A model generated the notes under the pieces. It had not been told where the DNA came from. It did not search any database and saw only the letters and a list, made by a program, of their open reading frames with translations. The translations under genes were made by a program, and so were the position numbers. A stretch of DNA of 32,000 nucleotides from Crocosphaera subtropica ATCC 51142 (GTDB lineage Bacteria > Cyanobacteriota > Cyanobacteriia > Cyanobacteriales > Microcystaceae), in NCBI RefSeq assembly GCF_000017845.1, contig NC_010546.1, positions 30,001 to 62,000 on the forward strand, in the 5' to 3' direction. Shown here piece by piece: positions 3,404 to 13,266 of this stretch (positions are counted from its first letter, which is position 1; each line of letters begins with the position of its first letter).

Positions 3404-4561
3404 TCAAATAATAGATTGATACACATTTAATGTTGCTTCTGCTGTTTTTTCCCAAGAAAACTGCTCTGCTTGTATTTTACCCTTATTGATCATCTCTTTT
3501 CTTAACGTAGAATTATCTATAACTTTTAACATAATTTGTGCTAATTGATAATAGTCAGTAGGGTCAATATACAACGCTGCATCCCCTGCCACTTCGGGTA
3601 AAGAAGAAGTATGAGAAGTAATAACAGGGGAACCTAATGTCATAGCTTCAAGTATGGGTAAACCAAATCCTTCATAAAAAGATGGATAGATAAAAGCTTC
3701 TGCTTGACTATAAAAAATAGCAACTAATTCATCAGAAATATAGTCTAAATGTTGAATATCGTCTTTGAATTGTGATGTGTTTATCTTATTAAAAATATCT
3801 TTATAATTCCAGCCTTTTTTACCAATTAATATTAACTGATGAGGAATTTTATAGTTTTGTTTGAGATATTCAAATGCTTCTATTAGAGTTAAAATATTTT
3901 TTCTTGGTTCTAAGGTACTGACAAAAAGAAAATAGGGTTTATATAGATAATAATCAATTATATTACGATTATCGTAGAGTATTTGACGGGTTAAATAATT
4001 AGGAGAATAACGACTTGCTTGGGGAGTTACATAAATAATATTGGGATCAATATTCAGTAATTGGATAATATCTTGTTTGGTACTTTCTGAAAAAGTAATA
4101 ATAGCATCTGTCCAAGATAAACAGCGTTTAATTCTTTTTAGATAACCTTTGACAATTTTGGTTGAATAGTTTGGAAACTTGATAAAAGTTAAATCATGAA
4201 TAGTCATGATTTTTATGGCTTTTCTATAGGGAAAAATATAATGATCTGTTCCTTGAATAATATCAGGTTGGTCTAAATGTGTTTCAAAATAAGGTAGGAT
4301 AAAAGGAACATATTTAGCCAAGATATTAGCAACACTAACAGGAATAGGTAAAGACGAAACTTGGAGATATGGAGTTAATAATTCTGGTGTTGATAAATTT
4401 CGGTTTAACCAATTTTTGACAGAAGGATGAAAATAAATATCTAAGATAAAATTGTTTTCTTCTTGCAGTCGATATAATGCTTGAATTAAATTTAGGGTAT
4501 AAACACCAATACCGGTTAATTTTCCTCTAACGGGAGTCGCATCAATAGAAACTTTAAACAT
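3404..4561 (-). CDS. Glycosyltransferase family 1 (GT4-type)
   Basis: Motif SFYEGFGLPILEAMTLGSPVITSHTSSLPEVAGDAA in a 385-aa GT-B-like layout. Confidence 0.85.
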   Translation of the reverse strand: MFKVSIDATPVRGKLTGIGVYTLNLIQALYRLQEENNFILDIYFHPSVKNWLNRNLSTPELLTPYLQVSSLPIPVSVANILAKYVPFILPYFETHLDQPDIIQGTDHYIFPYRKAIKIMTIHDLTFIKFPNYSTKIVKGYLKRIKRCLSWTDAIITFSESTKQDIIQLLNIDPNIIYVTPQASRYSPNYLTRQILYDNRNIIDYYLYKPYFLFVSTLEPRKNILTLIEAFEYLKQNYKIPHQLILIGKKGWNYKDIFNKINTSQFKDDIQHLDYISDELVAIFYSQAEAFIYPSFYEGFGLPILEAMTLGSPVITSHTSSLPEVAGDAALYIDPTDYYQLAQIMLKVIDNSTLRKEMINKGKIQAEQFSWEKTAEATLNVYQSII

Positions 4562-4565
4562 GAGT

Positions 4566-5738
4566 TTAAATCATCATTTCTTGGTAAATTTGATTGATAA
4601 CACAGGCATAATTATCTACACTATGAAATTGTTGATAACTTTGCTGCATTTTCTTTATTTTATCTTGAATAATGTCACTTTTAATAACTTTTCTAATAGT
4701 ATCAAAAACTTGCGATGGTTCTTGCCAATCAATAATTAATTCTGGTAAATTATGTTTTGTTAACTCGTAGGCCATCCATGTATCCTTCGTAACTAAAGGG
4801 GTTTTTCCGGCCATAATACACTCTGTGAATATTCCTGATGTTCTTCCTTCATAAGCAGGAAAACTATAAGGTAATAAAATGATTTGACTTAACCCAAACC
4901 AATGATAATATTGTTCTCTTGTGAGATGATTATCAATTAATTTTAAATTAACACCATTTTCTACAGATTTTAATTGTGTCTTTTCTGCACATACTAAATT
5001 AATATTTTTGGTATTTTCTCCTGAATAATTAACTAAATTGTTTATAATTTTTAATCCTTTTTCTTCCCTAGGAGAACCCGGCCACCAACATAAAATATGA
5101 GATGAATCAAGAGCATTTATGTTACAATGATTAATGTCAGTATGAGGAATCGGCATGACCATAACCGTTTCTTTAAAGTAACTAGATAAAGACTCACTGA
5201 GGCGATCGCTATCCGTTAAAAGCTTAAATTTCCCTGGTGGTAATTGTTTTTTGATCAAAGCATTAAGGAACTTATAAATAGAGCGAGTTTTATCTTTATG
5301 GGTATCTCTTCGATACAACAACCAAACCGATAACTGATCCGTAGGAACCCATAATAAAGCAAGATATAAAGCGAATAATTGTAAATGAATAAATCTTTCT
5401 AGAAAAATTACAGATAATTCTGACTGGTTAATAACATTAGTTTGCAAATAATTTCTAATACTTATGGATAATTGCCAAGTTCCTTGAATTCTCAAAAACT
5501 TCTGAATAATATTCCCTTCTTCTTCTAAATCATAGTTGTTTAAACACGCATCCCACCCCGACGGCAAATTATCAACTTTGTTGTCAATAGGGACCGTAAT
5601 TTTATGTTTCCATCCTAACTTATTTACGGCTTTATTAACTGATTGATGATAAGGAAGAATATGACCTTCACCTTCCATTAAATTAGGAATTAATGATACA
5701 AATATCGGTGATAATGTCTGTCCCTCATCTTGACTCAT
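4566..5738 (-). CDS. Hypothetical protein, possibly a divergent GT-B-fold glycosyltransferase
   Basis: 390-aa ORF packed in the operon with 4-nt and 13-nt gaps. The C-terminal segment LLPYSFPAYEGRTSGIFTECIMAGKTPLV loosely resembles the GT1 E-x7-E region. I recognise no clear family. Confidence 0.6.
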   Translation of the reverse strand: MSQDEGQTLSPIFVSLIPNLMEGEGHILPYHQSVNKAVNKLGWKHKITVPIDNKVDNLPSGWDACLNNYDLEEEGNIIQKFLRIQGTWQLSISIRNYLQTNVINQSELSVIFLERFIHLQLFALYLALLWVPTDQLSVWLLYRRDTHKDKTRSIYKFLNALIKKQLPPGKFKLLTDSDRLSESLSSYFKETVMVMPIPHTDINHCNINALDSSHILCWWPGSPREEKGLKIINNLVNYSGENTKNINLVCAEKTQLKSVENGVNLKLIDNHLTREQYYHWFGLSQIILLPYSFPAYEGRTSGIFTECIMAGKTPLVTKDTWMAYELTKHNLPELIIDWQEPSQVFDTIRKVIKSDIIQDKIKKMQQSYQQFHSVDNYACVINQIYQEMMI

Positions 5739-6329: not shown

Positions 6330-6920
6330 TTAGACGGCGATTTGGGCTTCTAAACCAGCCTTAGCAAACAATTGTGCCTCCACCTGCTCACAAATACGAT
6401 GATAAGTGATTAAGTGAATTTCTTGAATATAAGGGGTGTGATATTCTGAAACAAATAAAGGATAATCCGTTAAATCCTTTAACATTCCCCCGTTGTTACC
6501 TGCCATACCAATGGTGAGCAAGCCTAAATCTTTGGCCATTTCCATCGCACGAATCACATTAGCCGACTTACCAGAGGTCGAAATTCCCCAGAGAATGTCT
6601 CCTGGTTGAGCAAATGCCTCGACTTGACGGGCAAAAACTGTCTCAAACTCATAGTCATTCGACCATGCTGTTAAGGTAGCAGGATTTGTTCCTAATGCGA
6701 TCGCAGGTAATCCTTTACGATGTAATTGAAACCTTCCGACAAACTCGGCTGCAATGTGCTGAGCATCGGCTGCGGAGCCTCCGTTACCACAGATTAGCAG
6801 TTTATTTCCTGCTTTAAACTGCCGAGCTACAATACCAATGGTATGTTCTAATGCACGACAGTATTTAGGGTTAAACGCTTGTTCTAGGCAATTTAGCCTA
6901 TGTTGAATCCAATAGTTCAC
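6330..6920 (-). CDS. gmhA: D-sedoheptulose 7-phosphate isomerase (SIS domain)
   Basis: ICGNGGSAADAQHIAAEFVGRF and GISTSGKSANVI motifs; 196 aa. Confidence 0.9.
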   Translation of the reverse strand: MNYWIQHRLNCLEQAFNPKYCRALEHTIGIVARQFKAGNKLLICGNGGSAADAQHIAAEFVGRFQLHRKGLPAIALGTNPATLTAWSNDYEFETVFARQVEAFAQPGDILWGISTSGKSANVIRAMEMAKDLGLLTIGMAGNNGGMLKDLTDYPLFVSEYHTPYIQEIHLITYHRICEQVEAQLFAKAGLEAQIAV

Positions 6921-8002: not shown

Positions 8003-8125
8003 TATTAGAAGGAGGAGTATAAATAAAATAATACTTAAGCTGATGAGTAAAACGCAACAAGAAGCTAACATTAATGACACGCTTTCTATATTATTAAATA
8101 AAATATGGTATAGCATTTCCCACAG

Positions 8126-8692
8126 TTATGAAGTACAGTAACAGCAATGAGCAAACCAGTTACGAATATCTTTTTGAGTTACTTGTAACATGGCAAAAGT
8201 AAGAGAATCTATTAAATCTTTATAGTTTCTTGCTTTAATTTTTCTTAAAATAGCTTTGACCTTTGACCAAAAGTTTTCAATGGGAGAAAACTCAGGAGAA
8301 TAAGGGGGTAAATACATTAAACTAGCTCCAGCTTCTTCAATAGCCTCTCTGACTATTTCTCCTAAATGAATTTTAGCATTATCCATAACAACACAAGCAC
8401 CTGTCCATAATTTAGGCACTAATTCTGTAACAATAAAAGCTTCAAAAGTCACTCCATTTACTGAACCATAAATATTAGCAAAAGCTAATATTTTTTCTAA
8501 AGATAATGCTCCTATTATCGAGATATTATGCCCTCGCTTTTGTGGCTTTTCCCCCCTAGCTCTTGTTCCTTTTAATGACCTAGCATATAACCTAAGCATT
8601 GCTAGATTGACTCCTGATTCGTCTATAAAGACTAAGTTTTCTACTCTTATTCCTCTGATAACTTTCCAATACTCTACTCTTTTCTTTAGCAC
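8126..8692 (-). CDS. IS630-family transposase, C-terminal DDE part (orfB)
   Basis: LVFIDESGVNL, VVMDNAKIH and PPYSPEFSPIENFWSKVK are the DDE triad regions of IS630/Tc1 transposases. The frame continues upstream (KKTLYAPEKENVKVLKKRVEY) to the A8 run, one nucleotide out of frame with orfA. Confidence 0.85.
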   Translation of the reverse strand: MLKKRVEYWKVIRGIRVENLVFIDESGVNLAMLRLYARSLKGTRARGEKPQKRGHNISIIGALSLEKILAFANIYGSVNGVTFEAFIVTELVPKLWTGACVVMDNAKIHLGEIVREAIEEAGASLMYLPPYSPEFSPIENFWSKVKAILRKIKARNYKDLIDSLTFAMLQVTQKDIRNWFAHCCYCTS

Positions 8693-8708
8693 TTTAACAT
8701 TTTCTTTT

Positions 8709-9074
8709 TCAGGAGCATATAAGGTTTTTTTTAAGAGAATAATTCAGTTTTTGACTTATTCTCCCTATGGTACTTTTTCCAACTTTTACTCCTGTTGCTT
8801 TTTCAAGCAACTCTGATAATTCTTCAAAAGTGGCATCATTATTCTTTTCCATTAGCTCAATTAAGATTATTAATTGTTCGCTATTTAGTTTACAGGGAGG
8901 TCTTCCTCCTTGGGGTAGAGGTCTAATATCTCCAGTTTCTTTATATTTTTTAATTAATTTTTGAATAAAACTTTTCGATACTCCAAAGTGTTGAGCTAGT
9001 TTTCTTATAGAAATTTTCTCTTTTTTCCAAATTTCTATAATCTTATTTCTTAGGTCTATTGAGTAAGGTCTCAT
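8709..9074 (-). CDS. IS630-family transposase, N-terminal HTH part (orfA)
   Basis: MRPYSIDLRNKII...ISIRKLAQHFGVSKSFIQKLIKKYKETGD is a typical IS630 helix-turn-helix region. It ends shortly after an A8 run (T8 on the plus strand, 8725-8732). Confidence 0.85.
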   Translation of the reverse strand: MRPYSIDLRNKIIEIWKKEKISIRKLAQHFGVSKSFIQKLIKKYKETGDIRPLPQGGRPPCKLNSEQLIILIELMEKNNDATFEELSELLEKATGVKVGKSTIGRISQKLNYSLKKNLICS

Positions 9075-9081
9075 TTTTTAA

Positions 9082-9113
9082 GCGATCCCGAAGGGATCTG
9101 CTCCGCAGTGCGC
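9082..9113. repeat. HIP1 octamer split by a 24-nt double-hairpin mini-insertion (copy A)
   Basis: The sequence is GCGAT-CCCGAAGGGATCTGCTCCGCAGTG-CGC. Hairpin 1 is GATCCC-GAA-GGGATC and hairpin 2 is CTGC-TCC-GCAG. Removing the 24 nt restores GCGATCGC. Confidence 0.7.
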
Positions 9114-9217
9114 ATAATATAGTTTCTCCCTTAGTGTACCTCATGGATATGGGAAATGCTATATCTTTTTTCATGATCCTATACCATTAGTTAATCCTCT
9201 TACTTCAATTGGAATAG

Positions 9218-9938: not shown

Positions 9939-10235
9939 ATGTTTAGTTATGAAATAACATCACCCACTGAAGCAAGAAATAGTTTATTTCAGTTATTGGA
10001 AAAAGTGGCAAAAGATCATCAGGTATGTATCATCAATCGTAATGATGGAGAAAATGTCGCTTTAATTTCTGAATCTGACTTAAGAAGTTTAGTAGAAACA
10101 GTTTATTTATTGCGAAACCCTGCCAATGCACGTCGATTATTTGATGCCATAGACGAATCTATCACGGGAAAAATACAACCTCAAACTCTTGAAGAATTAA
10201 AACAGGAATTAGGAATTGAACAAGAAGAAGAATAA
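9939..10235 (+). CDS. yefM: Type II antitoxin, Phd/YefM family
   Basis: The N-terminal pattern (SPTEARNSLFQLLEKV...VCIINRNDGENVALISESDLRSLVETVYLL) is typical of YefM. It lies immediately upstream of a YoeB-like ORF. Confidence 0.85.
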   Translation: MFSYEITSPTEARNSLFQLLEKVAKDHQVCIINRNDGENVALISESDLRSLVETVYLLRNPANARRLFDAIDESITGKIQPQTLEELKQELGIEQEEE

Positions 10236-10527
10236 GCAAAAAAATGAAAAAAAATCACCTATTGTTAAACAAATTCCTGGTTTTAGTCAGCAATTTAAAG
10301 AAGATTTAAAATGGTGGTTCAAAACTGATCCTAAAAAAGCTTCAAGGATTTTAGATTTAGTGACAGAAGTTATGAAAGATCCATTTCAAGGAATAGGAAA
10401 ACCAGAACCTTTAAAATATATGGATAGCAATATTTGGTCAAGACGCATTGATTTAGAACATCGTTTAATTTATCGAGTTAGTCAAACTCAACTTGATTTT
10501 CTTTCTTGTCGTTTTCATTATGAGTAA
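10216..10527 (+). CDS. yoeB: Type II toxin, Txe/YoeB family mRNA interferase (start uncertain)
   Basis: DPFQGIGKPEPLKYMDSNIWSRRIDLEHRLIYRV...CRFHYE matches the YoeB core and its C-terminal H-Y. The in-frame start is a TTG at 10216, overlapping yefM. The ATG at 10244 is out of frame because of an A8 run (10247-10254). Confidence 0.8.
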   Translation: MNKKKNKQKNEKKSPIVKQIPGFSQQFKEDLKWWFKTDPKKASRILDLVTEVMKDPFQGIGKPEPLKYMDSNIWSRRIDLEHRLIYRVSQTQLDFLSCRFHYE

Positions 10528-10551: not shown

Positions 10552-11226
10552 ATGACACAAAGTATCACAAAATCTGCTGTAAATATTCCCCCTTTAGAAA
10601 ATGGCGATCTCGGAGAGATCCGCTTTGCGGTGCGCTTAACTCGTCTGGAGTTTGAAACCCGTTATCAAGAGATGACTCATGTTAAAAAAGCAGAATTAAT
10701 AGAAGGTATTGTTTATATGGGATCTCCTTTAAGAATTAACAAACATGGCGCACCCCACGCTAATATTATGGCATGGCTTGGATTTTATAAAGCTTATACA
10801 AATGGTGTTTAAATAAGGGATAATTGTACGGTAAGATTAGATCCAGAAAATGAACCCCAACCCGATGCTTTATTAAGGATAGAAAAAGTCGGACAATCAA
10901 TAATTAGTGAAGATGGATATGTAGAAGGTTCACCAGAATTAATAGTAGAAATTGCAGCAAGTACCGTATCTATCGATTTACATGATAAACTAAAAGCTTA
11001 TCGTCGGAATCAAGTTTAAGAATATTTAGTTTGGCGAGTAGATGATCATGAAATTGATTGGTTTAGACTAAAAGAAGAAAAATATGTAAAATTAAAAGCA
11101 GATGAACAAGGAATTATAAAAAGTGAAATTTATCCTGGTTTATGGTTAGATGTGACTGCTTTATTAAAGGGAAATTTAGCCAAAGTTCTAGAGATATTAA
11201 ATCAAGGAATCAAATCCTCTCAGTAG
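10552..11226 (+). pseudogene. Uma2-family (DUF820) putative endonuclease, with two in-frame TAA codons and a 24-nt insertion
   Basis: Continuous frame-1 reading: ...PLENGD[LGEIRFAV]RLTRLEFE...TNGV*IRDNCTVRLDPENEPQPDALLRI...SPELIVEIAAS...AYRRNQV*EYLVWRV...PGLWLD... The stops are at 10810-10812 and 11017-11019, and the frame ends at 11224-11226. Confidence 0.8.
10604..10635. repeat. HIP1 octamer split by a 24-nt double-hairpin mini-insertion (copy B)
   Basis: The sequence is GCGAT-CTCGGAGAGATCCGCTTTGCGGTG-CGC. Hairpin 1 is GATCTC-GGA-GAGATC and hairpin 2 is CCGC-TTT-GCGG. Removal restores GGCGATCGCTTAACT, encoding GDRLT. Confidence 0.7.
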
Positions 11227-13195: not shown

Positions 13196-13266
13196 GCGGG
13201 TGTAGTTTAGTGGTAAAACCTTAGCCTTCCAAGCTAATGATGGGGGTTCGATTCCCCCCACCCGCT
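13196..13266 (+). tRNA. tRNA-Gly (anticodon UCC)
   Basis: Manual cloverleaf. The acceptor stem is GCGGGTG/CACCCGC, the anticodon stem TTAGC/GCTAA with loop CTTCCAA (anticodon TCC), and the T arm GGGGG-TTCGATT-CCCCC. CCA is not encoded. Confidence 0.9.

Follow-up and report, generated by a model that had tools for sequence, protein, structure and literature searches.

A probable family of 24-bp mini-insertions within HIP1 octamers of unicellular and baeocystous cyanobacteria, akin to SDR5 yet separate from it

HIP1 (highly iterated palindrome 1) of cyanobacteria has, to our knowledge, been recognized for more than 30 years without an agreed function. We know of one reported case of precise insertion into this octamer, that of the small dispersed repeat (SDR) family SDR5, which was held to be confined to Nostocaceae. 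A locus of Crocosphaera subtropica ATCC 51142 raises the question of whether such insertions reach further. In a stretch of 32,000 nucleotides from this genome (NC_010546.1, positions 30,001 to 62,000; hereafter the window), an open reading frame (ORF) of the Uma2 family contains a HIP1 octamer split by 24 nucleotides that can be drawn as two small hairpins. Are these nucleotides native to the gene and, if they are not, what kind of element do they represent and how might it have arrived? Our comparisons lead us to view them as one member of a HIP1-directed family of 24-bp mini-elements that is SDR5-like yet separate, an overall explanation to which we assign about three chances in four.

The split site occupies positions 10604-10635 and reads GCGAT-CTCGGAGAGATCCGCTTTGCGGTG-CGC, in frame within an ORF that begins at 10552. 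All three of its parts are on the forward strand: the left portion of HIP1, GCGAT, at 10604-10608, the 24-nt insert at 10609-10632 and the right portion, CGC, at 10633-10635. The ORF translates to ...PPLENGD-LGEIRFAV-RLTRLEFE..., where the insert encodes the residues LGEIRFAV. Because a C opens both the insert and the right flank, the boundary is uncertain by 1 nt (5/6 or 6/7 of the octamer), the alternative register being 10610-10633. It is unambiguous at 5/6 for two other HIP1-embedded families discussed below, the L119 type and a 21-mer of Nostoc.

Evidence for insertion comes from a syntenic Uma2 ortholog in the unicellular strain SU3 (L117). Exactly at the position of the window's insert, this gene carries the unbroken sequence GGCGATCGC, with nothing duplicated or lost: an uninterrupted GGCGAT^CGC stands where the window has its two separated portions, and the insertion site corresponds to the Uma2 codons GGC-GAT-CGC (Gly-Asp-Arg). 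The two loci share the gene order YefM - Uma2 - DUF1499 - esterase - Lgt; YoeB is present in the window only, and the SU3 locus shows the antitoxin alone. Among the 120 best Uma2 homologs, 117 read GD[RKQH]LT at this place with no extra residues, so that an earlier note on this DNA, which had taken LGEIRFAV for an insertion within a split HIP1, is borne out on both points. The site is filled in the window and in homologs P0001, P0075 and P0096. The window and P0001 are 86.6% identical, and the nearest relatives, P0002 (88.9%) and P0008 (91.7%), are both empty; in our reading the Uma2 site has been hit repeatedly by insertion. A Uma2 homolog from a metagenome (L119, 263-294) carries an unrelated 24-nt insert, ACGGCTGAAGCCACGCTCCGCGAA, at the same GCGAT^CGC bond. 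This insert is also readable as two mini-hairpins, and a search of plasmids with it returned no matches; it may represent a third HIP1-targeting family.

The second filled/empty comparison is provided by a mobile element. Another copy, GCGAT-CCCGAAGGGATCTGCTCCGCAGTG-CGC, lies on the forward strand at 9082-9113 (insert 9087-9110), where the same note had placed it, and both of its stems bear compensatory changes relative to the copy at 10604-10635. Its host is an insertion sequence (IS) of the IS630 family on the reverse strand (8098-9174), recognized by its terminal inverted repeats (8098-8141 and 9131-9174) and by the ORFs of a split transposase, a helix-turn-helix ORF at 8709-9074 and a DDE_3 ORF at 8126-8692, both on the reverse strand. 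The copy sits in the 5' leader of this IS, between the right inverted repeat and the transposase start, with the ATG 8 nt downstream. In five further copies of this IS, each encoding the identical 121-aa protein, the site is empty and reads TATGCGATCGCTTAAAAAATG. Another copy (L130), which belongs to one sample series with the window, is filled and has different outside flanks, and the filled and empty alleles are otherwise near-identical DNA. Because five IS copies are empty and the filled one in L130 has other outside flanks, we conclude that the 24-mer entered one IS630 copy, which transposed afterwards; the second copy of the window now travels with its IS by hitch-hiking. At both the Uma2 and the IS630 loci, then, the 24 nt (8 residues in Uma2) are an insertion and not native sequence. 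A third filled/empty pair, the window against Crocosphaera chwakensis (L072), was considered and dropped: the window lacks an ortholog of the segment in which the L072 copy lies.

How large is the family, and what defines its target? A degenerate 32-mer built from the two window copies matches the window twice (0 matches expected from 100 shuffles), and intact HIP1 occurs there 11 times against an expectation of 0.09. The internal 24-mer, used without its flanks so that these were free to vary, gave 118 matches at 116 loci in a scan of 185,579 species, each represented by a single genome. Flanks were exactly GCGAT...CGC in 82 of these matches, and most of the others were one base off HIP1; a single actinobacterial match with unrelated flanks was set aside as a chance match. 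Metagenome contigs, scanned with a 24-mer carrying N at its four covarying positions, yielded 122 matches, 70 with exact HIP1 flanks and 95 with no more than two flank mismatches. The further copies anticipated by the earlier note thus exist, 118 in genomes and about 95 HIP1-flanked ones in metagenomes, and their flanks, which the search left unspecified, rebuild the octamer.

The 136 distinct filled sites have no consensus outside the octamer. The orientation of the insert is fixed: the arrangement GCGAT-forward-CGC was seen 153 times and GCG-forward-ATCGC not once (0), and since HIP1 is a palindrome, this coupling between polarity and bond is not trivial. Taken together, the copies form a family of 24-bp non-autonomous mini-insertion elements, placed at GCGAT^CGC without target duplication or loss of target bases and spread over more than 130 distinct sites among unicellular and baeocystous cyanobacteria. 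At two positions, both in loops, the window insert departs from the consensus of the family, CTCGAAGAGATCCGCTTCGCGGTG, and a 24-mer identical to the insert is present in a Uma2 paralog of strain SU3 (L077). An identical consensus recurs at non-orthologous sites in Crocosphaera, Hyella, Prochloron and SU3; that genera so distant have it in common is a sign that a conserved factor, acting in trans, constrains the sequence.

We looked for traces of a source of the family. Clustering of the 150-nt flanks of 208 copies gave small orthologous groups only, of at most 6 members, and no large cluster that would mark a master locus. A search for half-elements or cargo-carrying versions returned just point-mutated copies and one nested case. 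A few loci hold two copies, both then in the same orientation; for one of them (L035), a mobiliser gene between the paired copies was considered and discarded, the ORFs found there appearing, in an assessment that included no domain scan, to be relics of a DDE transposase.

Could the insert have spread without any dedicated machinery? The HIP1 halves might serve as microhomology in polymerase template switching or in very short-patch gene conversion, with the hairpins promoting fork stalling, and HIP1 is reported to stimulate recombination in Picosynechococcus PCC 7002 in a Chi-like manner (bioRxiv 10.1101/2024.09.10.611283). Two of the filled sites belong to multi-copy families, Uma2 and IS630, in which conversion between paralogs is conceivable, and the identity of the window insert with that of the SU3 paralog would fit such an origin. 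The flanking differences led us to reject conversion from the Uma2 paralog: the window flanks TGGCGAT and CGCTTAACTCGT follow the empty ortholog, whereas the filled paralog has CGCCGAT and CGCTTAACAGCT, which would confine a conversion tract to less than about 5 nt on each side and excludes ordinary tract lengths. As to template switching, a homology of 5 + 3 nt would not have yielded clean products of 24 nt more than 150 times, the filled sites share nothing beyond the octamer, and the conservation of stems and consensus across orders would be left unexplained. We consider spread without dedicated machinery improbable.

The settings of the copies bear on the simplest objection, namely that the 24 nt are native sequence. 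Among 124 copies, 63 fall in ORFs that are 120 codons or longer, where each of the six frames is represented, as are both orientations relative to the host gene (30 same, 33 opposite); copies are also found in intergenic DNA and in an IS. The insert is free of stop codons in all six frames for 10 of 11 variants and, within genes, adds eight codons. Twenty host ORFs were scanned, 16 of which match Pfam families, and the host genes include those for an SNF2 helicase, hybrid histidine kinases, a Roc-COR GTPase, an amidase, a Ser/Thr kinase, PucC, phosphoglucomutase and a glycosyltransferase. An ordinary indel of 8 codons within this Uma2 lineage, or a motif under local selection (one that binds a protein, for example, or forms a hairpin in RNA), would agree with an insert that is in frame and with the intact ORFs of two insert-bearing Uma2 genes (P0001 and P0075). 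Such a native origin is nevertheless refuted, in our judgement, and scarcely credible: the sequence is missing from the syntenic ortholog, the IS630 alleles differ by it, copies are bounded by HIP1, and the same 24-mer recurs in unrelated genes, between genes and in an IS.

Orthologous phosphoglucomutase/phosphomannomutase genes (L052, about 7822; L096, about 4611-4640), from the lineages SU3 and Crocosphaera MO_192.B18, carry the insert at the same codon, with loop 2 slightly diverged. Because orthologs of two lineages share the insert codon, some insertions are old and tolerated, here even in a housekeeping enzyme, and the family as a whole includes both recent and ancient events.

The 116 genome loci fall in Chroococcales, Pleurocapsales and relatives of Prochloron. 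Hosts comprise Crocosphaera and Cyanothece; Prochloron and Prochloraceae; Xenococcaceae, Pleurocapsa, Hyella, Chroococcopsis, Stanieria and Chondrocystis; Lusitaniella and the unicellular strains SU2 and SU3; Synechocystis PCC 6714, 7338 and 7339; and Picosynechococcus, including PCC 7002. Plasmid matches were obtained in Stanieria, Picosynechococcus, Synechocystis and Chondrocystis. Two of them concern model strains, with copies in plasmid pAQ7 of Picosynechococcus PCC 7002 (L254, 41-72) and in plasmid pSYLB of Synechocystis PCC 6714 (L255, 41-72); one of the two lies in a NACHT-domain gene and the other in a Cas4/Cas1 fusion gene. The 24-mer has no match in Nostocales, either among the 185,579 species genomes or among plasmids.

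The stems of the insert are conserved as well. Hairpin 1, GATCTC-GGA-GAGATC (10606-10620), has in its 5' arm three bases, G, A and T, that belong to the split octamer, and hairpin 2, CGC-TTT-GCG (10621-10629), has a possible fourth pair, C10620-G10630, that competes with hairpin 1. The stems may accordingly be read as 6 bp + 3 bp or as 5 bp + 4 bp. The two adjacent hairpins drawn in the earlier note are supported by covariation in both stems, but they cannot both be kept as written, as they share the C at 10620. In an alignment of 42 distinct sequences, pair 7-13 of hairpin 1 changes from U-A to C-G in 7 distinct sequences with 0 mismatches, and pair 18-26 of hairpin 2 from C-G to U-A in 4. 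The metagenome scan, in which these positions were free, allows an internal control: among 94 copies with at most one flank mismatch, pair 7-13 is Watson-Crick in 94 and pair 18-26 in 88, compared with 12 of 27 for either pair among the matches with unrelated flanks. Each stem offers one informative variable pair, all other pairs being invariant, while loop 1 varies freely (GAA, GGA, TCC, ACA, GCA, AAA). The stems are maintained by compensatory change, the support being covariation and not thermodynamics. In the Picosynechococcus PCC 7002 copy, the loop of hairpin 1 is TCC, the reverse complement of the window's GGA, which suggests a loop inversion within this hairpin.

Is the family already known under another name? 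The nearest precedent is SDR5 (Elhai et al., Genome Res 2008), of which three citing papers give summaries: a repeat placed precisely between HIP1 nucleotides 3 and 4 (as outlined in PMC4390886), 21 nt in length (as summarised in bioRxiv 10.64898/2026.06.24.733823). A statement in PMC5861425 has it that no SDR-like repeat was found outside Nostocaceae, and directed cutting at HIP1 is put forward as an explanation of SDR5 in a passage of PMC4390886. We recovered the probable SDR5 sequence de novo from 200 kb of the Nostoc punctiforme plasmid pNPUN01 and by plasmid blastn. A HIP1-bounded repeat, GCG-TAGGCGTAGCCCGCCGTAGGC-ATCGC, was located 163 times in 57 records, of which 54 belong to Nostocales genera, and its blastn matches start and stop at the HIP1 borders. 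This Nostoc 21-mer is probably SDR5. Its copies in pNPUN01 (L123, 13321-13352 and 29597-29628) sit in a larger duplicated segment.

The two repeats have much in common. Both use the same HIP1 bond, position 3/4 of one strand corresponding to 5/6 of its complement; both are dispersed and of tiny size (the 21-27 nt class), devoid of an encoded transposase and accompanied by evidence of recent mobility; both are found within and between genes; and in each of them two mini-hairpins can be drawn, with 2-3 nt separating the second from the CGC flank. They differ in length (24 nt against 21 nt) and in sequence: written in the same direction, the present element is GCG-CACCGCGAAGCGGATCTCTTCGAG-ATCGC, and its likeness to the Nostoc repeat is limited to G+C-richness. 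Their host ranges are disjoint, Nostocales for the Nostoc 21-mer and none of them for the 24-mer; in blastn searches with each repeat, neither matched the other's hosts. That the 24-mer should be SDR5 itself, the Nostocaceae family already named, is suggested by their common size class and is very improbable in view of these differences, along with the summaries of SDR5 as 21 nt long and absent outside Nostocaceae. We conclude that the 24-mer acts like SDR5 and, missing three of four SDR5 features (length, sequence and hosts), constitutes what we treat as a separate family. The earlier note's comparison with SDRs was a good lead inasmuch as SDR5 sits in HIP1, though identity with it fails.

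As a member of the SDR class at large, the 24-mer fits well: its size lies within 21-27 nt, it has many dispersed copies (at least 136 flanking contexts) and no coding capacity, it shows filled and empty sites (the Uma2 ortholog pair and the IS630 copies), and its secondary structure is backed by compensatory mutations, with one informative pair per stem. A full-text literature search with the element sequence gave unrelated primer matches alone, the original table of Elhai 2008 being outside this comparison, and among papers on HIP1 with Crocosphaera none describes the 24-mer. The family thus appears undescribed, while the class, though not widely known, dates from 2008. This qualifies the assertion that the insert belongs to no ordinary class of feature, which holds, apparently, for the family and not for the class, given the precedent of SDR5.

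Other known systems resemble the element in part. Like repetitive extragenic palindromes (REPs), their doublets (REPINs) and the associated RAYT transposases, it is short, structured and non-autonomous, its stems are kept by compensatory change and it is presumably mobilised in trans as a single strand. REPs, however, are found outside genes, bear GTAG or CGTC as a 5' tag and are believed to move in inverted doublets some 100 nt long, whereas the 24-mer is a single unit, half intragenic, without such a tag and with one strict 8-bp target; the intragenic copies, the missing tag and the absence of doublets rule out this identity. IS200/IS605 elements (IS608, ISDra2) likewise make no target-site duplication, lack terminal inverted repeats, have a hairpin near each end and enter in one constant polarity on the 3' side of a specific short target, which for the 24-mer is GCGAT. 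They differ in measuring at least about 700 bp, in encoding TnpA and in needing ends of tens of nucleotides that include guide sequences; no linked TnpA was seen with the 24-mer. Miniature inverted-repeat transposable elements (MITEs), such as Nezha in cyanobacteria, are also non-autonomous and dispersed, and can ride in or near IS elements, but they span 100-400 bp and possess terminal inverted repeats and target-site duplications, none of which the 24-mer has, and we reject this assignment as well.

The mechanism that we propose is tentative, at odds somewhat short of even: an enzyme acting in trans, encoded by the host or by an IS, would move or copy the 24-mer in single-stranded form and in one fixed polarity. 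This enzyme would nick HIP1 at GCGAT^CGC and join the 24-mer by strand transfer, by analogy with the 'peel-and-paste' style of HUH/Y1 enzymes such as the TnpA of IS200/IS605 and REP-associated RAYT (PMC3116915), and replication would then fix the insertion. Cyanobacteria are rich in HUH/Y1 enzymes, with several Y1 subclasses, and it has been suggested that these make small dispersed repeats proliferate (PMC6006769). The two stems could be the cis features recognised by the enzyme, and such recognition would explain a single consensus across distant genera. The bond itself is used by unrelated sequences, the L119-type 24-mer and the Nostoc 21-mer. Enzymes of the PvuI/AsiSI type cut at this GCGAT^CGC bond.

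A different route, in which the element is transcribed within host RNAs, inserted into nucleic acid that contains HIP1 by a reaction resembling reverse splicing and reverse transcribed, accounts for several of the same facts. Compensatory stem changes are expected for a structured RNA, the polarity is fixed, and reverse splicing also yields precise insertion without target duplication. We nonetheless find RNA-mediated spread unlikely. Insertions show no bias with respect to the transcription of host genes, as given by their orientations above, and the variable pair displays no asymmetry between G-U and C-A intermediates (U-G 2-3 times, C-A 2-4). Moreover, 24 nt cannot be self-catalytic, no Rfam family matches at the site, and the part of the window ORFs that was searched against Pfam includes no reverse transcriptase.

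Strand transfer by a trans-acting enzyme, the mechanism that we favour, has its own difficulties. The same Pfam scan, which covered part of the window ORFs, found no HUH/Y1 transposase, nor was any enzyme identified. The folding energy of the insert is no better than that of shuffled sequence (z -0.1 to -1.9). The ends required by those IS200/IS605 elements that have been characterised are far longer than 24 nt, and REPs lie outside genes where half of the present copies are intragenic. Three unrelated families at one bond suggest that the choice of target lies in the enzyme, whereas in IS200/IS605 it is the element's guide sequence that chooses. Elhai et al. (2008) are also said to have favoured, in their abstract, RNA intermediates for SDR elements. 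Finally, HIP1 of PCC 7002 is reported to lie outside any native restriction system (bioRxiv 10.1101/2024.09.10.611283), and a classical PvuI-like nuclease is for this reason not guaranteed.

Whatever the enzyme, HIP1-directed micro-insertion extends to unicellular cyanobacteria, with a second, sequence-unrelated family and a hint of a third. The use of the same bond across families shifts the explanation from a peculiarity of Nostoc to a general HIP1-directed nicking or strand-transfer activity. A still broader idea, which we regard as possible and rather doubtful, is that HIP1 is the docking site of a widespread cyanobacterial strand-transfer activity that inserts structured oligonucleotides of about 21-24 nt at GCGAT^CGC and is used by at least three unrelated families, the 24-mer, the L119 type and Nostoc SDR5. 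If this were true, they would be the smallest mobile elements known, moved by a new mechanism, and HIP1 would acquire a concrete molecular function. The mechanism is open to experiment, because the family occurs in two genetically tractable strains, Picosynechococcus PCC 7002 (pAQ7) and Synechocystis PCC 6714. The inserts also have a practical side: many proteins, phosphoglucomutase, kinases and Cas4/Cas1 among them, gain eight residues; the inserts are unannotated, and they can mislead alignments and ortholog calls.

The host gene in the window deserves a comment. The Uma2-family gene (PF05685; 10552-11227, forward strand) was recognized from PF05685 homologs and from synteny with the SU3 ortholog, and its translated frame is 83-86% identical to proteins that bear this domain. 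It contains two in-frame TAA codons on the forward strand, at 10810-10812 and at 11017-11019, the SU3 homolog having CAA at the second. In our reading this gene is a pseudogene, or else assembly errors are present. The codon of the SU3 homolog at 10810-10812 was provisionally read as GAA; the same alignment lists its first base as invariant. Neither the stop codons nor the IS630 setting of the second copy had been noticed in the earlier note.

Some composite arrangements were also encountered. A copy in L098 (minus strand, offset about 4789) has some 23 extra nt inside loop 2, and three Hyella copies (L008, about 1555-1610; L067, about 4349-4400; L081, about 6524-6580) adjoin a second mini-module, GCGCAGTGCC...CGATCGC. 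Such nested and composite forms suggest that the population of modular mini-hairpin repeats in these genomes is a larger one. In metagenome contigs L141, L199, L148 and L187, matches that are not flanked by HIP1 present a similar G+C-rich double hairpin (for example CCCGAAGGGATCGGCTTTGCCGTG) with recurring flanks; rather than pure chance, they may reflect an unrelated REP-like repeat of other bacteria.

As to the surroundings, the window is about 88% identical to Crocosphaera chwakensis CCY0110 over 6 kb. A YefM-YoeB toxin-antitoxin pair (9939-10527) lies directly upstream of the Uma2 gene, and a tRNA gene is found at 13196-13266, downstream of the esterase gene.

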